Source: Symsagittifera roscoffensis
Lineage: Eukaryota
Reading direction: 5' to 3'
DNA: 64,000 nucleotides
Assembly (NCBI RefSeq): GCF_963678635.1
Contig: NC_087064.1
Location: 32,745,028 to 32,809,027 of the forward strand
Shown here: piece after piece, positions 13,700 to 31,954 of the stretch
How the letters are laid out: each line of letters starts with the position of its first letter
Position numbering within the stretch: position 1 is the first letter of the stretch
The notes under the pieces: generated by a model
What the model saw: only the letters and a program-made list of their open reading frames with translations
Database searches by the model: none
What the model was told of the DNA's origin: nothing
Position numbers and translations under genes: made by a program

Positions 13700-13890
13700 A
13701 TATAAATATGCTTCGGAATCAGAACAAACTGTTATACTGAGTAAACAAGGATTTTATCTAATCAGACATATACTTCATTTTTGCTTCAAATATTTGACAG
13801 CTTAAAAATGACAGCACAAGAGTTTGCTCTGATTCCGAAGCATATTTATGTCTGATTAGATAAAATCCTTGTTTACTCAGTATAACAGCT
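13700..13890. repeat. Rearranged inverted repeat. Blocks X (aaatatgcttcggaatcagaacaaact) and Y (gttatactgagtaaacaaggattttatctaatcagacata) are followed about 45 bp later by their reverse complements in the order X' Y'.
   Basis: A direct read of 13700-13775 versus 13815-13890 shows this. Confidence 0.6.
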
Positions 13891-14061
13891 GATTTTTTTG
13901 TCGAGATTCGTTTTTGGATTGAGGAGAATCCTATATATTTCTTCGAAATTATTAAGATTTGGAGTACTAACAGGCACATTACCGTTGACTACATTGAGCA
14001 AGCATTCGCAAACGACTGATATAACTTGAGTATTTGATGATTATCTAGTAAAGCTCGGTAT

Positions 14062-14812
14062 TTAACTTGGATTCAATTGTACCATGTGTTGCAGAATGGA
14101 TGATTTTTCGCGTTCATTTGTGATGGGTGATGCCTTATCTAATGGTAAATAGAAAATTGACGGACCAGGTGTTATTATGTTTGAACAGTATCTCAGACAG
14201 TCTGATGTTCGGGGATCTAAGTCTATTAATAGATGTCCAAAGCTGTTTTTGGTAGCCAGTTCATACGATTGTCGTAAAAATTTAGGTGCATTAAGTTGTC
14301 TTCCGAGGTGATCAAGTTGCTGAATATCACGAGATGATTTGAATAAAATTATGTGAGATGTGTTCAAATCAATAGTTCGTGACCATCGACTTTGTTGGAA
14401 TGAATTATGTTTGACATAAATAACATCTAAGCCTTTGTGTCTTCCTGCTGTTGCTAGTTTAACGAATTCTTCATCATTGTATATTTCTTCGCATGAGTCA
14501 TCAAACACTAACAGAATGTTTTCAATGTTTCTCAAACGATCGAATCCATCAAATTTGACAAATTCGATTTGAATTCTGCCAGCGTTCCTCGTCCCTAAGT
14601 ATAGGTTGAATATCTTTGTAAAAAAATAATACTCTTCCAAATTTTGGATAAAAAGTTCTCACTTTCAATAATTTGAAAATTAATTCTGTTTTTCCTGATC
14701 CCGAAGGTCCTACAACTGCCATAAACAGTCTTGTCGACATATCAATAATTCTATTTGTATCCTTGGGTTTGGTAACTCGTACCCAACTAAACCAGACAAT
14801 ATGGAAAACCAA
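14062..14812 (-). pseudogene. FtsK/HerA-superfamily (A32/IVa2-like) DNA-packaging ATPase, with a frameshift between the Walker A and Walker B parts.
   Basis: ORF 14549..14812 has the Walker A motif AVVGPSGSGKTELIFKLL. ORF 14062..14640 has the Walker B-like motif NILLVFDDSCEE and continues to KHNSF..SR. Confidence 0.55.
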
Positions 14813-17516: not shown

Positions 17517-18900
17517 ATGTCTGAAGCTACAGGACTTGTGGGTTATTGCAAGGGTTCATTGTTTTCAGGTTTTGGTGGAAGTCTTTTTGATGCCCCCTCA
17601 GAATCATCATCTAGAGAGCCGCTACGTGGTAGGTATCAGCCACTTTCTGGATGTCGTGTTGCTACGGGTGAACCACCATTAATGGGAACATCTATGGCAC
17701 CGCCACAGCCACCAATTTATGAAGGAGGTCCTTTTGGTGCCCCCTCACAACCTTCCTCTGGAGCACCGCTATTTGGGGGACCTCCGCCACCTCCTGGAGG
17801 CGGTCTTTTTGGTGCCCCCTCACAACCATCTTCTAGCGCGCGCCTATTTGGGGGACCTCCGCCACCTCCACCTCCTGGTGGAGGTCTTTTTGGTGCTTCC
17901 TCACAACCATCCTCTGGCGCGCGGCTATTTGGGGGACCTCCGACACCTCCTGGAGGAGGTCTTTTTGGTGCCCCCTCACAACCATCCTCTGGCGCGCGGC
18001 TATTTGGGGGACCTCCGCAACCTCCTGGAGGAAGTCTTTTTGGTGCCCCCTCACAACCATCCTCTGGCGCGCGGCTATTTGGGGGACCTCCGCCACCTCC
18101 TGGAGGAGGTCTTTTTGGTGCCCCCTCACAACCATCATCTAGCGCTCGGCTATTTGGGGGACCTCCGCCACCTCCTGGTGGAGGTCTTTTTGGTGCCCCC
18201 TCACAACCAGCCTCTGGAGCGCCGCTAATTGGGGGACATCTGCCACCTCCTGGAGGAAGTCTTTTTGGTGCCCCCGCACAACCATCATCTAGCGCTCGGC
18301 TATTTGGGGGACCTCCGCCACCTCCTGGAGGAGGTATTTTTGGTGCCCCCTCACAACCATCTTCTAGCGCGCGCCTATTTGGGGGACCTCCGCCACCTCC
18401 ACCTCCTGGTGGAGGTCTTTTTGGTGCCCCCTCACAACCATCCTCTGGCGCGCGGCTATTTGGGGGACCTCCGCCACCTCCTGGAGGAGGTCTTTTTGGT
18501 GCCCCCTCACAACCATCTTCTAGCGCGCGCCTATTTGGGGGACCTCCGCCACCTCCACCTCCTGGTGGAGGTCTTTTTGGTGCTTCCTCACAACCATCCT
18601 CTGGCGCGCGGCTATTTGGGGGACCTCCGCCACCTCCTGGAGGAGGTCTTTTTGGTGCCCCCTCACAACCATCCTCTGGCGCGCGGCTATTTGGGGGACC
18701 CCCGCAACCTCCTGGAGAAGGTCTTTTTAGTGCCCCCTCACAACCAGCCTCTGGAGCGCCGCTATTTGGGGGACCTCGGCCACCTCCTGCTGGAGGTATT
18801 TTCGGTTCTGCTCCTCGGCCGCCATCTCTGTTGTTAATGCCCATATCTCCGCCACTTTCCCCCTCTTCTCCTATTCTATTTGACGACTGTTGTTTTTCAG
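17517..18900 (+). CDS. Putative first coding exon of a host gene. It encodes an N-terminal FG-containing segment, then about 14 copies of a 25-aa GLFG/Pro-rich repeat (GGPPPPPGGGLFGAPSQPSSGARLF).
   Basis: A 468-aa ORF starts at ATG 17517. Degenerate in-frame repeat copies occur at both ends. Candidate acceptors tttctttgtttcag/tttcag lie at 17301-17326. A cag|gtattt donor at 18900/18901 leaves phase 1. That phase is exactly completed by the next exon at 19303. Caveat: the repeat unit is stop-free in all six frames, so ORF length alone is not evidence. Confidence 0.45.
17745..18800. repeat. 75-bp GC-rich tandem repeat, about 14 units.
   Basis: Periodic cctccgccacctcctggaggaggtctttttggtgccccctcacaaccatcctctggcgcgcggctatttgggggac. 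ORFs are open on both strands in several frames. Confidence 0.9.
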
Positions 18901-19302
18901 GTATTTTAAGATCTGAATTTTGAAATGATCCATAAAAAATAATACGAAATATTAAAATTTACTGGGAATACTACTGCTTGTTTCAGATGAAAAAGAAAAT
19001 ATTTTGTTAAATATGGTCGCTGAAAGTTTCATATGTTTGAGAAAAATTTAAAAATTTCGTTAAACATGCTCGTAAAATTAATCACACTGTTGGAGGAAGT
19101 AAGTATTTCAAAAACCTGATTTTTTCCATTCCGAAATTTCAGTGTACCATATGCATTTTCTCATAGTTGTAAGTCTAAATCACGATTCTAGAGTGTCACG
19201 ATGCTGAGCAGGCTTTCTAACGAGGTCTAAATGGGCAATGCCAATAAAATGTTTTTTTTTTAAATATGATTGTTGTGTTTTACTCAGACAAATGTTTTTC
19301 AG

Positions 19303-19740
19303 CGTTTGCACACAGCAGAATAGAGCAAGAGAAATCGGATCTTTTGCCGATGCCGCTAAGTTCTGATTCCGCCCTTCTGCTAAAGCCTGAATCGTATAAA
19401 GCGAAAGTTTCTGCAAAAAAACATGTCCTAAATAGTTCGAAGCAACAGTCAACGCAAGATTTAGTATGTATGTCAAGTGAGGAAGAACAAGCGTATTCTG
19501 CTCCAATCTTGCGCCAATCTAAAGGACTTGTGAAGTCTTCAGATGACGCTGCTGATAGTTTTTATACAATGCTAAATACATCTGTTCGAAGTGAATTAAT
19601 CGAAAGAAAAAGAGGAAAAGGAAATCGAATTGCTACTACATTAGAAAAACCTCCTTTGCCTGAAGATGGGGATTCTTTTACTAATATATCTACATATGAA
19701 CCTGAAGAGATGCAAGATGAAATGTTCTCGACTCAATATG
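19303..19740 (+). CDS. Internal coding exon (146 codons) encoding a Ser/Glu-rich acidic segment (…SSEEEQAYSAPILRQSKGLVKSSDDAADSFY…EPEEMQDEMFSTQY).
   Basis: Acceptor aatgtttttcag at 19291-19302. Consensus donor g|gtgagt at 19741. The open frame spans the whole interval. It enters in phase 1 and leaves in phase 1. Confidence 0.5.
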
Positions 19741-20349
19741 GTGAGTTGGGTCAATATTTATCTTAATCAGCAGCGAAAAAAAAACAACTGATCACTGGTT
19801 GTCAACATTTTTGCTTGAAGTCAATTTGTTCCTCGCGACATGGTATCGAACCATACTTATTGCATGGGATCAATTTTTTTCTCTGGCATAACATTATTTC
19901 CAGGGGAATATCTACAGTTTTCTCGGGTGATTCTCTAGAAAACGTGAAAAAGTTTTTCATTCAAGTTTTGTCGACCTTTAAAACAAATCAATTAAGAAAT
20001 CGGATATATTTGATTAACTTCGCAAAAAAATGTATTGTTTTACCATGCAAGCCAAAACACAAAAGATCAGCGACAGAGCATGATCTGCGTTGTTTTTTTT
20101 AAATGTTTTCATTAGATGAAAGAAAAAAGATGATACAAAAAATTGTTGAAAATACTGTCAAAATAGATTCAAAATATTACCCAATTTAAGATTTTTATTA
20201 GAATATATACTATATTTTTAGTCTGGAAAGTAACAAGTAATTCGGCATAAAATGCGTACTGACTTCTCTTGTGAAAAGCACATGGATTTTGCAAGGGGTT
20301 GCGTTAAATTTTGTCAATTTTTCATAAAGCCCATTTGTTTTTGTTTCAG

Positions 20350-21839: not shown

Positions 21840-22150
21840 TTTTATATAGGTCTGGATAGTTTTTTCAGGAACGTGATCCACCTATTTTTGCGAAAATGAG
21901 TTTTAATAAACAGATTTCCCAGCGAAAAAAAATAATGTTTTGATCCGTATTCTCAATTTGGGTAGTTTTAAACCAAAAAAGTATCAAATTTAAATTGTTT
22001 AAGAAAATTAAAAAGCTTATCTGTTATCTCTAAGAAGTTATCTATTTTTCCTCTAAAACTCAAAAGTTGAGGTTTTTCAAAAATCCCTCAGTTTTTTTTT
22101 TCATTTCGTTCACTGGCTCTTCTCGAACTAGCTGTTGCCTGTGTATACTT
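21840..22150 (+). repeat. Copy of the 400-bp repeat family (5'-truncated). Its 3' half is included in the left arm of hairpin 1.
   Basis: ggaacgtgatccacctatttttgcgaaaatgagttttaataaacagatttcccagcgaaaaaaaataatg ... ttcactggctcttctcgaactagctgttg. Confidence 0.5.
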
Positions 22151-22920
22151 AAAAAATTAAAATTAAATTTTAATGAGAACATCCAATGCCTTCTTACCCT
22201 GTGCTTAACTAGGGTGTTACTCCAGAGTGCTAGTTTTTTTTTCGAAGTAAACAAGTTTTGGCGTAGCAACGACCCGGAGACTCCAAATTAATTCAGCTCA
22301 ACGGGTAGATTAGTAAACTAGTTGAAGATTTCAAAAGATCGAAATGGATAATGTTTCTAGAAAGGTTCGACCAACAAGAGGCAACAAGTAAACTCCGGTC
22401 AACTGTGAAAGGACTATCGAACACAATGGGTGTGTTTCTGAGTTTTGGCGTTTGTGTTCGATAGTCCTTTCACATTTGACCAGAGTTTACTTGTTGCCTC
22501 TCGTTGACCGAAACTTTCTAGAAACATTATCCATTTCGATCTTTTGAAATCATCAACTAGTTTTTTAATCTTCACGTTGAGCTCAATTATTTTGGAGTCT
22601 CCGGGTTTTTGCTATGCCAAAACTTGTTCACGTCGAAAAAAGACTAACACTCTGGAGCAACACCCTTGTTAAGCACAGGGGAAGAAGGCATTGGATGTTC
22701 TCATTAAATTTTATTTTTAACTTTCTAAGTATACACAGGCAAGAGCTAGTTCGAAAAGAGCCGGTGAACGAAACGAAAAAAAAAACTGACTGGTTTTTTA
22801 AAAAACCTCAACTTTTGAGTTTAAGAGGAAAAAGAGATAACTTTTTAGAGATAACAGATAAGCTTTTTAACTTTCTTAAACAATTTAAAATTGATACTTT
22901 TTCGATTTAAAACTACCCAA
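21950..22920. repeat. Long hairpin (inverted repeat 1). Arms of about 490 bp (21950-22438 and 22452-22920) at about 90-95% identity flank a 25-nt loop tgggtgtgtttctgagttttggcgt.
   Basis: The reverse complement of 22452-22920 aligns to 21950-22438. Mirror ORFs 22060..22269(-) and 22614..22910(+) encode near-identical peptides. Confidence 0.85.
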
Positions 22921-22924
22921 ATTG

Positions 22925-23345
22925 ACTACATATTGGACTTGATTGCATCTTCGAAGAATTTCAATAAAGCATTTCAATTGTTTCAATTCCAAGTTGTTTG
23001 ATCTTGCGTATAACTTCCTTCTTTCTTTTTTCGATGTTGCTATGGTGTGTAGTGAACTGTTGGTTGCATTTGTCGCAGATCTTTTGTGTGTCATGTAGGA
23101 GTTCATTGTCAAAGATAATGGTTGTGTTTCTGAGTTTTGGCGTTTATCTTTGACAATGAACTCCTACATGACACACAAAAGATCTGCGACAAATGCAACC
23201 AACAGTTCACTACACACCATAGCAACATCAAAAAAGAAAAGAAGGAAGTTATACGCAAGATCAAACAACTTGTAATTGAAAGAATCGAATTGTTTTATTG
23301 AAATTCTTCGAAGATGCAACAAGTCCAATATGTAGAACAAATGGA
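22925..23345. repeat. Hairpin (inverted repeat 2). Arms of about 190-210 bp (22925-23117 and 23133-23345), unrelated to hairpin 1, flank the loop tggttgtgtttctgagttttggcgt.
   Basis: gttcattgtcaaagataa|tggttgtgtttctgagttttggcgt|ttatctttgacaatgaac. The outer arms are ttgattgcatcttcgaagaatttcaataaa ... and ... ttattgaaattcttcgaagatgcaacaagtcc. Confidence 0.85.
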
Positions 23346-25959: not shown

Positions 25960-26749
25960 TCTATATTTGCCCCAAAACCGCCATCCATACCTAAACTGCG
26001 CAAAACTGATTAACAACTAGATTAAAAATACAATTAAGAAAAATTTTACAGCGAAAGCTAGATCAAATCTTCTGATCAGCCGTAGAAATCGATTTAGGGG
26101 GATATAATACCGGTTTTTCAGAATTTAACTTAGAAGGTAAAATAGAGTCTTTTCTATTATACGACCCAAACTTCATTGTTTTGATATAATGAAAACTGGA
26201 TCATAATGCTTTATTATGATTGGATGAAATTAACAAATACGAAGGAAATCTGAACCTTAATTTCAAATACATTAGCTCAATTTACGTTTTTGTGATATTG
26301 GGCCACACAACAGGAAAGACGCGCAAAATAAGATGATCTAATAAATAAAATTTAAAAAAATCGAAACAGAATTATGAATAAAATGGGGCCTAGGAAATAG
26401 CTATTCCATGTGAAAGTTTTTATGAAGCACTATTTTTTGCGCGCTTGTTTGAAATGATTATTTTATGCGTAATCTTTTTTCAAAATTATTACAACGCAAA
26501 GGGGAAATAACTCTTAGGAGGCAAAGATAACACTTAGGAGGAGAGATACAAATTATCAACAAGCTGTTTTTCATAAAATGAGTAATTTTTCTATAATTTT
26601 TTCTTATTTGTTTCAGATCCCAAGAGTATGGATGGGCTGAATTTGAGGCCGAAGAAGAATCCGAATACCAGGCTACAAAAACATTGACGAAGTTCGTTTG
26701 ATTTCTAAATGTTAATTTTTAATTTATCTTTCATTTAGGTCAGGTGTTT

Positions 26750-27163
26750 TTTTCCAGAGTTTTGTTCATGCTGATTTTTGAGTCTTCGCGGTCCCTTCTG
26801 ATTTCTCTTCAAGTTCAGTGATATTGTTTTGCTAATTGGAGGGAAAAGTACACACTTCAATTACGAAAAAGCAAAAGGCGCGAGAAATGTGTTTCACTTG
26901 TAAGCTCGAAGTTCGGACTTTAGTTTTGAGGTTTCCCAGCGGATTAAGAAATTAGTTATCGATCCAGTTTTCCGAAGTTGTGTTGAGAAAAGGAAAAAAG
27001 TTCAATCATAAGAGAGTGTTGAATACAAATGATCTTTATTTTATTACATATTTTTGCTCCGAAATTTGAAAAAAATTAACAAAGTCCATTTTTTGGTTTC
27101 CTTGTTAATTAACACTTTTCCAATTATCTTACGGCTATGTTTTTCAACTATCTGACGGCTATA
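26750..27163 (+). repeat. Copy of the 400-bp repeat family. Its tail abuts the poly-T end of the LINE.
   Basis: ttttccagagttttgttcatgctgatttttgagtcttcgcggtcccttctgatttc ... aacaaagtccattttttggtttccttgttaattaacacttttccaattatcttacggctatgttttt caactatctgacggctata. Confidence 0.55.
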
Positions 27164-27270
27164 TTTTTTTTAGTTGCACTTGATGCAGCATTTGAAAAGT
27201 CTCTAATGAACTTCCACTTGTGGATCCAGTGGCAACCGCCTTGTTGTTGTTGTTGTTGCCCTTCTGAGAT

Positions 27271-30200
27271 CTATTCGTCGCTCGTTGTTGGGTCCAGGGT
27301 TGTGGGGAGTTTCAGGAATATTGTTGTCTTCTTCGGTTGCTTCCAGAGATCGGCTGGGGTTAAGTTCGTAGGATTTGCGATGCAGTCGAACAGGTGTATA
27401 GTTGTGTGGCTTGTTTGCTGGCAGTCCGGGCAAAGTTCGCTTACTGTCGGGTCAATTCTGTTCATGTACGAGTTCAGGAACTTTGAGTAGCCGGATCTGA
27501 GCTGTGCCAGTGTTCTTCTCGTTGTTCTTGGTAATTCGGTTTCTTCTTTGGCAATTTTTGGTGGATTGTGTCCGAGGACTGCTGGGTGTTCGTAGGTTTG
27601 TAAGGCGTCGCGTACCTCATTTGTGTGGATCGTTTTTAGCAGGTTTCTGTACTTCTTTTCGGTTAGAGGTCTATTGCTGTCGAGTAGAGGTTCAATGTAT
27701 CTTTCTTCATATCGTGTTTGGAGGGTTTCTTTCATGAGTCTTGGTGGGTTCTTGGGTTCTTTCGTGAGTTGGTTTCCTGGGTGATCTGGCAAGTGGTTGG
27801 CGAGATGATGTTGTATCGTTCGCATTCTGAGGTGTCGTCTAACTGGTAGAACGGATGTTTCTTGGTGAAGGTGGTCTATGTGAGTCATGGCGTGGCATCC
27901 GGTGATTGTTCTCAGGGCGCTGTTTTGGACCTTCTGTAGTTTCTCGATGTTGCTTTCGGAGAGTGTGGGCGTTATCACAGCGGCGCCGTACTCAAGTTTA
28001 GTGCGAACAACCGCTTTGTAGGTCATGAGGAGTGTTTCCTTGTCGCTTCCCCAGTCAGTGCCGGCAAGCGCTTTCAGGGCGTTGTTGCGTTGAGAGCATT
28101 TCTTCGCAGTGTCTCTGCAATGGGCCCCGAAAGTGTGCATGGTGTCGAAAGTGATGCCGAGGATCTTCGCTTGGTTGTTCATTCTTATTTGTTCATTGTT
28201 TATCTTCACTTCAGGAACGGTTTTGTATTGGGCTGTCTGTGGTGTCATCAGCGTGACAAAACTCTTGTCAATGGAGATCTGGAGGTTTCGCTCTTCGAAG
28301 AAGTTCACTAGTTCTGCGAGGTACTCCGTTTGTTTTCCTGCCATTGCTGGTATGTCGGTGCCGAGAATGAGGGACGTGAAGTCGTCTGCGTAGGACTTGA
28401 TCTTGATTTCGTCCGGAGGGCTAGGTGCGTCTGCGACGTAGTAGTTGAAAAGGAGTGGCGACAAAACTGATCCTTGTGGCACTCCAAACCGAACTATCCG
28501 TGCTTTTGAGAGAGAGTCGCGAAACAGTGTTCTTGCTTGTCGTCCTTGTAGGAAGTTCGCGAGCCATCTTTTCAGAGCACTGGGCAGACTGGTCTTGTTG
28601 ATGAGGTCGAGGAGCTTGGAATGCTTAACCGTGTCGAAGGCTTTCGACAGGTCAATCGCGACAAGCAGAGTCCTGTCGGCTGGTTTCTTTCTGTTGAAGC
28701 CGTTGGAGATGGCTGTCGTGATGTCACAAAGAGCGGTGACCGTTGAGTGCTTGGACCGGAAGCCGTGTTGGTGACTGGCGAAGTGGAGGTGTTCGGTGAT
28801 GAGAGGTTGGATGCACTTCTCCAGGATCTTCGAGGCTGGGCAAAGCAAGGAGACGGGTCTGTACGAGTTGCTGAGGCCTGCGTCTTTGCCTGGTTTCAGC
28901 AGCGGAATAATGACTGACGACTTCCAAATTGCTGGGATCTGGCATTTGCTGAGCGACAGGTTGAAGATCTTCGTGAGGTAGTTGATAGCATTTGGTCCGA
29001 GGTGTTTCATGTGAGTGGTCGAGATGTTGTCTGGGCCGAATGCTTTGGAGTTCTTCGCGTTCTGTATGGCAGTTTTTACTTGTTTGGAGGTAATGACTGG
29101 GGCGTCGTTGAGAGGTTGTTTCTTTATGTTTCTGTTTATTTTCCTGTTGTCTTTCTCGGTCTTGTGGTTCATTGGTCTTGCGTATTGTATATTGAAAGCG
29201 TTGCTCATACTGCTGGCGTCTTTAATCTGTTTTTCGTTGAATTTTATTCCTTGATTTGGAGGGGCACTTTGTTTCTTTCCTGTGATCGCGCCGATTGTCT
29301 TCCAGAGTTTGGTCACATTGGTTTTTCTGTCGAATGTTGCCACATGCTCTTTCCATTTCTCCATTCTTTGCTTGGAAATGAGGAAGTCTATCCTGGCGTT
29401 CAAGGTCGGAATGTCTTTGGAGTGAGGGTTGTTTCTTCTTGTTTCGTCTCTTTGCTTGATCAGGCGGGAGGCTGCTGGCGGAATGTTGGGCTTGGCTTTG
29501 GGAATGCGTCCGGAGGGAATGTTGTGAGCAGAAGCAGTGTTCAGAATCTTCCTGAAGACTTTCTCTCCGCTGTGGGTGTCAGATGGTTCTTCTTCGCTCA
29601 GAAAGAGTTCTTCTGTTTCCTGTTTGAAGGTATCCCAGTCGGCTCTGCTGAGGTTCACGAAGGTGCGCTTGGGTGCTCTGACTTCTGTGTCCCTCTTCAG
29701 TTCGATCTTCATGGGAAGGTGATCTGAGCCCAGGGTGATCTCTGTTTTCCAGGAGAGGTCGAGAAGCAGGTCGGAGGAGGCCATGCTGATGTCCGGCGAG
29801 GATGGCTGATCTCCTCGTGGGAGGCGAGTTGGGTGGTCCGTGTTGAGGACGCCGAAGGAGGAGTCTTCAATTTCTTCTGCCAGTTCGGAGCCACGGGTGT
29901 CTTCTTGGTTGCTGGAATGCCACAAGGAACTGTGTGCGTTCGCGTCTCCTACCAGGATTGTCTTGCTGCTGGAGAGGAGGTCTTGCAGGGACGCCTTGTA
30001 ACCTTGAGGACAGCTGCTGGAGGGAGGGATGTAGTAGTTGATGATGTTCAATTCAACTTCGTTCATCTTGATGTTGACTCCCTGGACTTCTCTCGTGCCG
30101 TCGTTCTGCTGATCTATGTCCATGGTGTTGAAGTCGACAGTTTCGTGAATGAGGGTCATGAGTCCGCCACCTCCTTGACCACGATCACGTCGGATGGCAG

Positions 30201-30744
30201 TATAGCCAGGGAACTTCGGCGTCTTGTTCCGTTCTTGTAGTTTGGTCTCTTGAAGGGCGGCAACTGTGATCTTCCTTTCTTGTAGGTAGTTGCTGAGCTC
30301 TTTTGCTTTATTCTGTATGCCATTGCAGTTCAGTTGTAGTAGCTTGAACTTCACTTTCTGGGTTTGTCGGGGGGTCTCTGCAGTGCAGGGGGGGCATCTC
30401 CAGTCTGGCTGAGAGAGGTACTCGGCTGTCTTGCGCATGCCGCTGCATTTCAGGTGCATCCATTCTTTGCATTGGTGGCATCTGATTGTCTGTGTTTTCA
30501 TCTGTCGGGAGCAGACTTTGCAGTTGACTTTTTGTGCCGGACCGGGGTTGGGTTCAATACCAGCCATCAGTAGTTGGAGCAGGAGAAGAGAGGCTGGCGT
30601 TGTCTTCTCCACTACCAAAAACCCGGGTTGAGTGACGAATAGGGTCCCTTTCTGGGAAGTCTGTCGCTGTTGCGGCAGGATTGGCACCATTTGCTCCAGT
30701 TGGAGACGAATCCACCACGAGTAGCCGGTTGCCACTGGATCCAC
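27271..30744 (-). CDS. LINE ORF encoding an EN-RT polyprotein. Order: 2A-like motif, a C4HC3 PHD-like finger (CKVCSRQ..CHQCKEWMHLKC..CPPC) and an APE/EEP endonuclease (LQLNCNGIQNK…LQETKL). Then RT (FGPDNIS…LLVAIDLSKAFDTV…FGVPQGSVLSPLLFNYYVAD…YADDFT), a C-terminal KLQKVQNSALRTITG block and a CPDC…H…C motif.
   Basis: Motifs read directly from the translated ORF. The first codon in the ORF track is GTG, so the real start is uncertain. Confidence 0.85.
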   Translation of the reverse strand: MDPVATGYSWWIRLQLEQMVPILPQQRQTSQKGTLFVTQPGFLVVEKTTPASLLLLQLLMAGIEPNPGPAQKVNCKVCSRQMKTQTIRCHQCKEWMHLKCSGMRKTAEYLSQPDWRCPPCTAETPRQTQKVKFKLLQLNCNGIQNKAKELSNYLQERKITVAALQETKLQERNKTPKFPGYTAIRRDRGQGGGGLMTLIHETVDFNTMDIDQQNDGTREVQGVNIKMNEVELNIINYYIPPSSSCPQGYKASLQDLLSSSKTILVGDANAHSSLWHSSNQEDTRGSELAEEIEDSSFGVLNTDHPTRLPRGDQPSSPDISMASSDLLLDLSWKTEITLGSDHLPMKIELKRDTEVRAPKRTFVNLSRADWDTFKQETEELFLSEEEPSDTHSGEKVFRKILNTASAHNIPSGRIPKAKPNIPPAASRLIKQRDETRRNNPHSKDIPTLNARIDFLISKQRMEKWKEHVATFDRKTNVTKLWKTIGAITGKKQSAPPNQGIKFNEKQIKDASSMSNAFNIQYARPMNHKTEKDNRKINRNIKKQPLNDAPVITSKQVKTAIQNAKNSKAFGPDNISTTHMKHLGPNAINYLTKIFNLSLSKCQIPAIWKSSVIIPLLKPGKDAGLSNSYRPVSLLCPASKILEKCIQPLITEHLHFASHQHGFRSKHSTVTALCDITTAISNGFNRKKPADRTLLVAIDLSKAFDTVKHSKLLDLINKTSLPSALKRWLANFLQGRQARTLFRDSLSKARIVRFGVPQGSVLSPLLFNYYVADAPSPPDEIKIKSYADDFTSLILGTDIPAMAGKQTEYLAELVNFFEERNLQISIDKSFVTLMTPQTAQYKTVPEVKINNEQIRMNNQAKILGITFDTMHTFGAHCRDTAKKCSQRNNALKALAGTDWGSDKETLLMTYKAVVRTKLEYGAAVITPTLSESNIEKLQKVQNSALRTITGCHAMTHIDHLHQETSVLPVRRHLRMRTIQHHLANHLPDHPGNQLTKEPKNPPRLMKETLQTRYEERYIEPLLDSNRPLTEKKYRNLLKTIHTNEVRDALQTYEHPAVLGHNPPKIAKEETELPRTTRRTLAQLRSGYSKFLNSYMNRIDPTVSELCPDCQQTSHTTIHLFDCIANPTNLTPADLWKQPKKTTIFLKLPTTLDPTTSDE
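30538..30591 (-). other. 2A-like ribosome-skipping motif, LLLLQLLMAGIEPNPGP, at residues about 53-69 of the LINE ORF.
   Basis: The reverse complement of 30541-30582 reads ctg ctc caa cta ctg atg gct ggt att gaa ccc aac ccc ggt. This fits D(V/I)ExNPGP with D changed to G, and is preceded by a hydrophobic helix-like stretch. Confidence 0.5.
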
Positions 30745-30861
30745 AAGTGGAAGTTCATTAGAGACTTTTCAAATGCTGCATCAAGTGCAACTAAAAAAAA
30801 AAAAAAAAAAATATAGCCGTCAGATAGTTGAAAAACATAGCCGTAAGATAATTGGAAAAGT

Positions 30862-30960
30862 GTTAATTTTTTTTTTTTTTTTTTTTTTGGTTTCCTTGTT
30901 AATGAACAAAGTCCATTTTTTTTTTTTTTTTTTTTTGGTTTCCTTGTTAATGAACTTCCA
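30862..30960. repeat. Two tandem units of T20+ggtttccttgttaatgaac(aaagtccat), related to the 400-bp repeat tail.
   Basis: tttttttttttttttttttttggtttccttgttaatgaacaaagtccat tttttttttttttttttttttggtttccttgttaatgaacttccacttcaatg. Confidence 0.7.
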
Positions 30961-31954
30961 CTTCAATGAATTCTTCGCTCTTACGGTCAAAATTTTTTTG
31001 TGATGGGTAGGTAAACTCAATCAAATTAGAGCTGAGCCCAAAAATACGTCAGTCATGTGAATCAACCTATTATCATTTAAAAATGGTATTGCGATTTTCT
31101 GAGAATCGAAAATTATGCATTGCGATGTATCTGCGTTCTTGCTAATTTTCATTTAGCGATGTGAAGGTACTCAATTAGGTCTTGTCGTTTTTTAGATAAA
31201 ATTTCTAGTGTACGCTTGAATATATTCTTTTGCGGTTCGACTTCATATTTTTTCAAGTACACTTCAAATTCAGTTGCCAAATTGTATGCAATATTCGCTT
31301 TCCAACAACTTACGGGATCACTTAAGTGTCAAGCACTGAAATTTTTTTTTAAATAAAGATGAAAAGATGAGATTTATTTTTTCTGCAATGTGATTTATTT
31401 TTTTGATTGAATTTCGAAAGTTGAATAAATCAATAAAAGTCCTTTTTCCATTTTTTTTCACCTCATTGACAATTTTCCAACTGTTGGCTATGTTGTGTCC
31501 TTTCGGAAATTCGCATGATTCAGGAATGTAAATCTTGCAAAAAGCCGAAAAGCATCATGGAGATTTAGACTACTCTCCAGGTTTGCGTTTTTCTAATTCA
31601 AGTCTCTTGAGTTGAAATATCAATTTAATGTAGTATTTAAAAGATTTGTCATTCATTTAAAATATTTTTTGTTGATTGACTGAAAACTCTAGTTTCATGT
31701 TAACTTAAGGTCAAATTTAACTTAAATTTCTTTGCCCTAGCCCGCTATGAGTGGAACGACGTTAATCTAGTCGCCCTTATGGGCGTGTTTTAGCTTGTAT
31801 ATGTAGATTGACAAAAACATTAGATATATCTTTTCTAATTTTCTGCCTTCGTAAATGCTAGTTATAAAATCATTGTTATGTTTTTAAGATGCCTTTTTCT
31901 TAGCGAAATTTTCAATGCTACGCAAACAGCACTAGGGTACTGAGAAAAATAGTA

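Follow-up and report, generated by a model that had tools for sequence, protein, structure and literature searches.

An inverted repeat around a LINE of Symsagittifera roscoffensis is mostly host DNA, probably copied backwards during one abnormal integration

The 64,000-nucleotide window of Symsagittifera roscoffensis DNA analysed here (NC_087064.1, positions 32,745,028 to 32,809,027) contains a full-length LINE between the arms of a real inverted repeat, most of which is host DNA that was probably copied backwards during the abnormal integration of this one LINE copy. The inverted repeat is best read as the scar of one integration event, and is neither a functional terminus nor a property of the element, which is otherwise an ordinary acoel-worm LINE.

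The left arm (window positions 27107-27238, 132 nt) is the exact reverse complement of the right arm (30726-30868, 143 nt), and the sole difference between them is one homopolymer, which is T8 (27164-27171) on the left and A19 (30793-30811) on the right. Comparison of the arms gave a BLAST E-value of 4e-58 while shuffled sequence gave no matches, which bears out the exact inverted arms described in an earlier sequence-only reading of this DNA. Each arm consists of 57 nt from the tail of a host repeat (R), the T-run of R, a further 49 nt of host DNA and, as the whole of the LINE's share, LINE nt 1-18. R is a dispersed repeat, and the copy at this locus (~480 bp, 26687-27171, plus strand) aligns across the arm boundary with the R copy at 2351-2831. 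The outer portion of the left arm consists of the tail of this copy (27107-27163) and of R's T-rich end, the T8 run; the R consensus, from 13 aligned copies, ends in ...TTGGCTATGTTT(T)n, and the T-runs of R copies elsewhere are short. The identification of the outer 57-nt block as the tail of a repeat was therefore correct, and the R family to which it belongs is ~480 bp long.

As the left arm is contiguous with the R body, it represents the original copy, in plus orientation, and its sequence is identical in the allelic contig L005 and in contig L007. Inward from T8 it continues with unique host DNA (27172-27203), the left copy of a target-site duplication (TSD), an extra G and LINE nt 1-18 in sense. 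The right arm, in minus orientation, is the copy, because the R body is missing there and templated filler follows; a search beyond this arm found no R body in inverted orientation. From the LINE outwards, it comprises the LINE's own nt 1-18 (30726-30743), a single C (30744), the inverted TSD (30745-30760), the inverted unique host DNA (30761-30792), A19 and the inverted R tail (30812-30868). The segment 30744-30868 is the reverse complement of 27107-27220 and lies directly beside the priming site, as at a snap-back or foldback junction. About 126 nt of host DNA is present twice, the second time in inverted orientation, and the outer limit of this inverted duplication is the centre of a 10-nt perfect palindrome inside R (GTTAATTAAC, 27104-27113).

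The ends of the LINE had been read, in sense, as (T)nAGTTGCAC at the start and ...GCAACT(A)n at the finish, but four other full-length copies (L001-L004, 98.8-99.6% identical) set different ends. These copies define a 3,503-bp element that starts with TGGATCCAG... and finishes in a (CAA)4-6 tail; the family 5' end is (T/G)GGATCCAG(C/T)GGCAACCGCC and the 3' end is GGG(CAA)4-6. In the window, the full-length LINE (3,503 bp) occupies 27241-30743 on the minus strand, with a (CAA)6 tail at 27241-27258 on the same strand, and shares 98.8-100% identity from end to end with L001-L004 and the L007 copy. The A/T runs proposed as retrotransposition tails are not tails, since T8 is the T-rich end of R itself and the family tail is (CAA)n. 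An inverted terminus was found in none of the four other full-length copies, all of which have conventional ends and ordinary direct TSDs of 10-13 bp, and this comparison refutes the idea that inverted duplications are a genuine terminal feature of the family. Sequences X and Y, looked for as inverted termini, are absent from the non-orthologous loci. Smaller template-switch scars do exist at 5' junctions of the same family, which was sampled in six independent copies only: that of L003 carries a 13-nt filler duplicating CAACCGC, while L008, a copy 5'-truncated at nt 1648 and bearing a TSD, has LINE nt 2616-2768 placed ahead of it and also a 31-nt filler that duplicates bits of the TSD and the LINE.

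Between a 5' UTR of 53 nt and a 3' UTR of ~30 nt, the LINE carries a single intact ORF of 1,139 aa on the minus strand (27271-30690, from the ATG at 30690). The arm had been thought to reach the first codons of the ORF; it stops 53 nt upstream of this ATG and overlaps only a GTG-defined ORF start. The ORF product combines a 2A-like motif (encoded at 30538-30588) with a PHD finger, an APE endonuclease and a reverse transcriptase (RT), and has Pfam matches to RVT_1 (1.2e-30), Exo_endo_phos_2 (5.6e-18), Exo_endo_phos (6.7e-8) and PHD (2e-6). L1 ORF2p is the closest solved structure in the PDB (2e-26), and an RNase H domain was not found in the ORF; its homologues in sequence databases are unnamed. 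In the 1157-aa GTG-start version, LLLLQLLMAGIEPNPGP is located at aa 53-69 and the PHD finger at aa 75-120. An RT and an N-terminal APE-like endonuclease within one ORF mark an APE-type non-LTR retrotransposon, as do the 3' simple-repeat tail, the variable direct TSDs and the 5'-truncated copy L008. The single ORF, in which an N-terminal 2A-like NPGP motif precedes a PHD finger, is a feature of CR1/Crack elements with a 2A-PHD-APE-RT organisation. The tail of CR1/Crack-type LINEs is a short simple repeat, not poly(A). The LINE is a young, single-ORF, APE-type, (CAA)n-tailed element.

The entire composite is enclosed by a 16-bp direct duplication (TAATGAACTTCCACTT), with the left copy at 27204-27219 and an exact right copy at 30948-30963, both in plus orientation, after which the undisturbed right flank begins. 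This 16-nt sequence has exact direct copies at 27204 and 30948 and one inverted copy at 30745 within the right arm, and shuffles gave no matches. A 17-nt match reported at 30935-30955 had been read as a hint of tail sharing between LINE and SINE; a 16-nt match exists, exactly at 30948-30963, but tail sharing is not needed to account for it, since it is the TSD around the composite. The left TSD copy is followed by a sense stub (27220-27240, plus strand) made up of the extra G and LINE nt 1-20 (TGGATCCAGTGGCAACCGCC), which matches the family 5' end; apart from it, there is no further LINE fragment within 20-40 kb. The stub resembles a canonical 5' junction, yet what it adjoins is the LINE body's tail in antisense, (TTG)6: the (CAA)6 tail of the minus-oriented body is joined to stub nt 20 with 1 nt of microhomology. 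Nucleotide 19 is C in the stub, as in the consensus, whereas it is G in the LINE body. Beyond the real 5' end of the LINE lie the inverted G, the inverted TSD and 110 nt of left-flank DNA, as far as the palindrome. A templated filler of ~80 nt (30869-30947, plus strand) then reads T20, GGTTTCCTTGTTAAT, GAAC, AAAGTCCA, T21 and GGTTTCCTTGT. It holds two direct copies of an R segment (27078/27089-27109), and its joints show microhomologies of 3-4 nt (ATT, TAAT, AAC and TAAT); every junction of the composite has 1-4 nt of microhomology. The T6 run is lengthened to 21-22 in the filler (T22 and T21), so that all three homopolymers are longer, and in the copied segments only (T8 to A19, T6 to T22 and T21).

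[quoted passage not shown] Aberrant TPRT with cDNA snap-back and serial template switching best explains the locus, and we lean towards it as the probable origin. One full-length LINE copy would have been integrating at a 16-bp staggered break just downstream of the R repeat, and the element's polymerase, prone to slippage and strand switching, would have resolved the integration abnormally. Initially, 21 nt of sense LINE sequence may have been added to the plus-strand 3'-OH at the break, either by second-strand initiation on the 3' end of antisense cDNA, or on copy-back-extended RNA, or from the remnant of an earlier copy. Re-initiation on the (CAA)n end of the LINE RNA would then have yielded a full-length cDNA, whose 3' end, being complementary to the 18-20-nt stub, could snap back and be extended on its own strand through the flank, generating the right arm. 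Three or four further microhomology-mediated switches would account for the filler, before the right-hand TSD captured the end. TPRT is favoured because the breakpoints fall exactly at the RNA-defined (CAA)6 end and at the TSD edge, where a random DNA break would be a coincidence, and homopolymers expanded only in copied segments argue for a stuttering polymerase rather than high-fidelity fill-in. Breakpoint positions and homopolymer expansion are the two observations that point to the element's RT as the enzyme that may have carried out the synthesis. The snap-back reading is further supported by the TSD around the composite, the 1-4-nt microhomologies, the scars in other copies and the precedent of R2 and L1. 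It is weakened by the sense stub, for which one has to assume either another cDNA or template of which nothing else is left or the precise removal of an older copy, and by the nt-19 mismatch between stub and body, which requires an error or a later mutation if one RNA gave rise to both. Similar microhomology and filler could also result from Pol-theta-type end joining or replication-based switching.

In a rather unlikely alternative, the locus would have arisen at the DNA level in two steps, namely a normal plus-oriented insertion with its TSD and its later inversion during host repair or replication, either by fill-in of staggered breaks or by fork-stalling template switching. LINE nt 21-3503 would have been inverted, a 146-bp block between staggered nicks duplicated in inverted orientation, and filler left at the right junction, so that one rearrangement would cover both the left-hand 5' junction of canonical form and the inversion of the body, together with the inverted duplication and the TSD copies that were kept. 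Such repair typically leaves microhomology and templated filler, and further local palindromes lie nearby (21953-22925 and 22943-23319). However, this requires one break placed precisely between (CAA)6 and the TSD and a right-hand join placed precisely on the TSD's first base, and ordinary fill-in synthesis would not be expected to lengthen all three copied homopolymers by 11-16 nt. Neither was an uninverted allele seen at the locus, and the left junction is the same in the two further contigs in which it could be examined. The absence of a lost cDNA is the attraction of another, improbable scenario, in which an incoming LINE RNP made its nick at nt 20 of an older plus-oriented copy, the full-length cDNA snapped back on the 5' end of that copy, and its other 3.48 kb was deleted in joining. 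This would explain the sense stub and fits the nt-19 difference between stub and body, and both snap-back and insertion-associated deletions are already known, but the deletion must have stopped precisely at the 3' end of the old copy, of which no remnant is present.

The sequence-only reading had offered a full-length LINE placed head-to-head with an extremely 5'-truncated copy at a palindromic target. In such a model, the inverted copy would bear its own poly(A) tail and would result from twin or dual priming with an inverted tail. Beyond a superficial likeness to L1 loci with 5' poly(T) (PMC2837659), this has next to nothing in its favour: the consensus ends from the four other copies already refute it, the family tail is (CAA)n and not poly(A), and T8 is the end of R. 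The inverted piece of LINE is the element's first 18-20 nt, hence its 5' end and not its 3' end, and lacks a (CAA)n tail, while the target is not palindromic and has no inverted R body on the right. An assembly chimera, also raised earlier, or a missed-adapter palindrome has a very small probability. The data are contigs throughout rather than reads, homopolymer length varies between assemblies (A22 versus A25), and the two ENA assemblies may share technology, and possibly reads, with the assembly of the window and are perhaps not fully independent of it. Against this, the complete structure is present in a second assembly, in the separately assembled contig L007, and the left junction recurs in L005, a divergent allelic contig that differs from the window at four sites over the aligned 26600-29767, all within the LINE (three SNPs and a 1-nt deletion). 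The 3.5-kb unique loop, the TSD and the filler also set the structure apart from a simple read palindrome.

What looks like a LINE with inverted termini can thus be host DNA duplicated at integration, and element ends need to be set from several copies before such structures are interpreted. The locus provides a fully sequence-resolved, germline-transmitted LINE 5' junction that was probably shaped by snap-back and serial template switching, events of a type so far undescribed for acoel hosts or for 2A-PHD-APE-RT LINEs with a (CAA)n tail, and complements experimental R2 and L1 data on failures in the second half of integration. The event type is already documented for R2 and L1, and the locus reveals no new kind of element or mechanism of transposition. 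It is conceivable, though doubtful, that the locus is the fossil of an in vivo integration intermediate, in which the stub records second-strand synthesis by the LINE RT at the upstream target 3'-OH, followed by a jump to the RNA 3' end and then cDNA snap-back. If so, the germline activities of an APE-type LINE RT would include second-strand initiation, end-to-end template jumping and DNA-templated snap-back; a by-product would be a LINE, intact and potentially active, between 130-140-nt inverted repeats, from which read-through transcripts could give hairpin RNA.

Staggered breaks at Drosophila inversion breakpoints produce inversions flanked by inverted duplications. The present locus likewise has an inverted segment between inverted copies of sequence that would once have lain between staggered nicks, but one of its breakpoints is an RNA-defined LINE 3' end and its copied homopolymers are grossly expanded. 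In its organisation, the LINE resembles CR1/Crack-type LINEs, in which an N-terminal 2A-like motif, PHD finger, APE and RT are encoded in one ORF and ORF1 is lacking (Odon et al. 2013, PMC3708506); this likeness of 2A-PHD-APE-RT architecture makes it a candidate member of the clade, but the 2A-like motif here (AGIEPNPGP) has G in place of the canonical D, and the host is an acoel. Twin-primed or 5'-inverted L1 insertions, including poly(T)-5' variants (PMC2837659; PMC11702581), share with this locus a TSD, LINE segments in opposite orientation and microhomology at the internal junction. Twin priming, however, inverts the 5' part of the element, keeps the tail beside the TSD and does not duplicate host flank, whereas at this locus the entire body lies inverted with respect to a 20-nt sense stub, the tail adjoins this stub instead of the TSD and 126 nt of host DNA is duplicated, which does not fit a twin-priming 5'-inverted insertion.

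[quoted passage not shown] Those cases are experimental and somatic and involve a site-specific LINE with a restriction-like endonuclease, while the present one is germline, allele-shared and of an APE-type LINE, with a snap-back that appears to have been seeded by an 18-20-nt sense stub and to have finished in a multi-step filler. L1 foldback junctions with full-length reverse-transcribed inserts are reported to arise by self-annealing of cDNA (PMC11702581) and are comparable in that a TPRT-extended DNA end self-anneals via the cDNA 3' end, leaving inverted flank copies around a full-length insert. L1 foldbacks are chromosome-scale events with copy-number change, whereas copying here would have extended ~126 nt into the flank before the same break was rejoined with its TSD preserved.

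The minus-strand LINE was delimited by comparison with four other full-length genomic copies of its family (L001, L002, L003 and L004), drawn from two ENA assemblies, which are 98.8-99.6% identical to it across 3,497-3,502 nt. These copies start with (T/G)GGATCCAG(C/T)GGCAACCGCCTACTCG and end with GGG(CAA)4-6, and all four are bounded by ordinary direct target-site duplications (TSDs): ACTGATTCCGTCG, CCAA(A)TTTAAAGG, CCTCTCCGACATC and GAGTACGTCA(G). Because these copies set the ends, the window element occupies 27241-30743, of which 27241-27258 form the (CAA)6 tail. The termini proposed in the sequence-only reading, ...GCAACT(A)n and (T)nAGTTGCAC, both lie outside the element, and its suggestion that terminal inverted repeats are a feature of the family is contradicted by the conventional ends and direct TSDs of the four other copies. 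The minus-strand ORF (27271-30744) encodes PHD, APE-endonuclease and RT domains, has L1 ORF2p as its nearest solved structure, and retrieved a cluster at 99% identity in a protein search. It is intact in the allele shared by the window and L007, a contig of the orthologous locus in another assembly (1,139 aa from ATG; 1,157 aa from the called GTG start). A 2A-like motif with putative 'ribosome-skipping' activity, LLLLQLLMAGIEPNPGP, lies just upstream of the PHD finger (30538-30588, minus strand), with the canonical D replaced by G. A single-ORF 2A-like/PHD/APE/RT plan has been reported in Crack/CR1-clade LINEs (PMC3708506), and the window element agrees with these in domain layout. Searching the JGI metagenome collection with the 5' end of the LINE gave no matches.

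The inverted repeat around this element is real. The left arm (27107-27238) and right arm (30726-30868) are reverse complements save for one homopolymer, which is T8 in the left arm (27164-27171) and A19 in the right (30793-30811), and a chance match is excluded by a BLAST E-value of 4e-58 and by dinucleotide shuffles, in which neither the 57-nt nor the 49-nt block of the arms found a match. The repeat had therefore been correctly recognized from sequence alone, but the element boundaries and the supposed tails had been misread. The outer 57 nt of both arms are the tail of R, a dispersed host repeat of ~480 bp with at least 12 diverged copies in the window, and the R copy at 26687-27171 can be aligned to others right across the arm boundary. 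The consensus of R terminates in ...TTGGCTATGTTT(T)n, which makes T8 the T-rich end of R itself and no retrotransposition tail. Inward of the R tail and T8, the left arm continues with 32 nt of unique host DNA, the 16-nt sequence TAATGAACTTCCACTT, a G and LINE nt 1-18; these first 18 nt are the entire LINE share of the inverted repeat. As the left arm runs on from the R body without a break, it is the original. The opposite assignment, with the right arm as original and the left as copy, was rejected because the R body is contiguous on the left only, and a palindromic target was rejected because the R body is absent in inverted orientation beyond the right arm. The right arm breaks off midway through a 10-nt palindrome, which reads GTTAATTAAC in the left copy. 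Rfam analysis of 26000-31600 identified no families, and a tRNA scan found nothing near the locus, which gives no support to R being a tRNA-derived SINE.

To the right of the right arm lies a filler of ~80 nt (T20, GGTTTCCTTGTTAAT, GAAC, AAAGTCCA, T21, GGTTTCCTTGT), which is made up of R segment 27078/27089-27109 copied twice in direct orientation, with the pieces joined at the microhomologies ATT, TAAT, AAC and TAAT. It is followed by a second direct copy of TAATGAACTTCCACTT at 30948-30963, beyond which the flank is unrelated. This 16-nt match, earlier taken as a hint of tail sharing between LINE and SINE, is therefore a TSD that brackets the whole composite. No paralogue was found across the reconstructed empty site (...AAAAGTCTC TAATGAACTTCCACTT CAATGAATTC...). 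In all three homopolymer runs the originals are short (T6, T8) and the copies long (T22, T21, A19), and runs in R copies elsewhere are short. Between the left TSD copy and the antisense (TTG)6 tail there is a stub (27220-27240) comprising a G and sense LINE nt 1-20. This arrangement resembles the canonical 5' junction of a plus-oriented insertion, but the LINE body is minus-oriented instead. At LINE nt 19 the stub carries the family consensus C, and the body carries a G that is private to the window locus; no other LINE fragments were found within 20-40 kb. The stub could stem from second-strand synthesis that was aborted on an initial, subsequently discarded cDNA, from an RNA template that had copied back on its own 5' end and so gained an extended 3' end, or from the leftover of an earlier plus-oriented copy.

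The published S. roscoffensis genome is described as highly heterozygous and rich in repeats (PMC9911081), and the orthologous locus was recovered twice in other assemblies. L005 (ERZ25071366), a divergent allele, aligns collinearly to window 9307-29767 (99.69% identity), and its left arm and stub/(TTG)6 junction are identical to those of the window. Within the aligned 26600-29767 it differs at four sites, all in the LINE, including a 1-nt deletion (window 28122, L005 18856) that breaks the ORF. L007 (ERZ25878734) encodes an identical 1157-aa product and holds the full structure, with both arms, the filler and both TSD copies, differing from the window in the length of one homopolymer (A25 against A22). 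The left junction of L005 and the complete structure of L007 make an assembly chimera unlikely, as judged from contigs rather than reads and with the right arm confirmed in one other contig only, L007. The expanded homopolymer adjoining the right arm measures 22 nt in the window (30867-30888) and 25 nt in L007 (9853-9877), and such runs are therefore either polymorphic or poorly resolved in sequencing.

Several other features of the window were recorded. Two adjoining near-perfect palindromes have unrelated arms and a shared central spacer of ~25-28 nt, ATGG(G/T)TGTGTTTCTGAGTTTTGGCGTTT: one (21953-22925) has arms of ~470 nt that are ~90% complementary over three collinear segments and include an R tail, and the other (22943-23319) has 176-nt arms at 95%. 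In the window the spacer occurs only in this pair, and L005, L006 and L007 have it at the orthologous positions; the pair may represent a foldback element or a locus for hairpin RNA. A tandem array of ~15 units of 75/81 nt (17517-18923), encoding GGLFGAPSQPSSGARLFGGPPPPP repeats, lies just upstream of an exon at 19266-19766. The ORF of this exon belongs to a 90%-identity protein cluster that also includes an S. roscoffensis entry with a PARP4-like annotation, so the host is that acoel species or one very closely related to it. A perfect 42-nt inverted repeat (13729-13770 and 13847-13888, 76-nt spacer) adjoins ORFs at 10041-14640 that by eye look like Polinton/Maverick-type or other mobile-element genes. 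At 46387-62000 lies a tandem duplication (99-100% identity) of a ~6.9-kb unit whose long retrotransposon-type ORFs reach 1,237 aa; we take the unit, by eye, to be a BEL/Pao-like LTR element. Each unit contains one tRNA-SeC-like sequence called by ARAGORN (54199 and 61080).

Followed in the 5'-to-3' direction, plus-strand positions 27241-30963 form a single continuous chain of four parts. First comes the antisense LINE, starting at the 3' end defined by its RNA and finishing at its 5' end; next, the complement of the strand bearing its own primer (G, TSD, unique DNA, T-run and R tail); then the R-tail filler; and last the right TSD. This anatomy, its left-to-right copying polarity and its microhomologies are directly visible at the locus. 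The simplest reading is that cDNA was primed from a plus-strand end already bearing the 21-nt sense stub and then snapped back. Because the cDNA 3' end is complementary to the stub, it could have folded onto it and been extended on its own strand up to the palindrome, and three to four further microhomology-mediated switches would then have allowed the opposite side of the break to capture the end. Among the explanations offered in the sequence-only reading, the snap-back or template-switch option holds and the remainder are refuted.

We infer the order of these steps and the identity of the enzyme, and three observations argue for the machinery of the LINE rather than generic DNA repair: the breakpoints fall exactly at the (CAA)6 end and the TSD edge, each copied homopolymer is grossly expanded, and smaller template-switch scars occur in other copies of the family. 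The 5' junction of L003 (9930-9950) contains a 13-nt filler, ACATGACAACCGC, that duplicates CAACCGC. At L008 (3856-4053, 5900-5925), a 153-nt LINE segment (nt 2616-2768) sits ahead of a copy that is truncated at nt 1648, along with a 31-nt filler of duplicated bits of TSD and LINE. Both complex junctions are template-switching signatures. A purely DNA-level inversion of a normal insertion via staggered breaks is a serious rival to snap-back of the cDNA. A 5' transduction from a read-through transcript was rejected, as it leaves the missing upstream target and the filler unexplained, and tandem or head-to-tail template jumping was rejected for its wrong orientation.

Snap-back 5' junctions are an explicit category among insertions mediated by the R2 protein, where synthesis is primed by the 3' end of the cDNA, with cDNA or target DNA close by as template, in many cases once the cDNA is full-length (PMC11371274), and L1 is known to form foldback junctions that contain full-length reverse-transcribed inserts and arise via cDNA self-annealing (PMC11702581). 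The L1 loci with a 5' poly(T) attributed to twin or dual priming (PMC2837659), which match the earlier picture of this LINE, are inapplicable here. What the window locus preserves is the scar of a one-off integration event; its general kind is already known, but the host and the LINE type are new for it.
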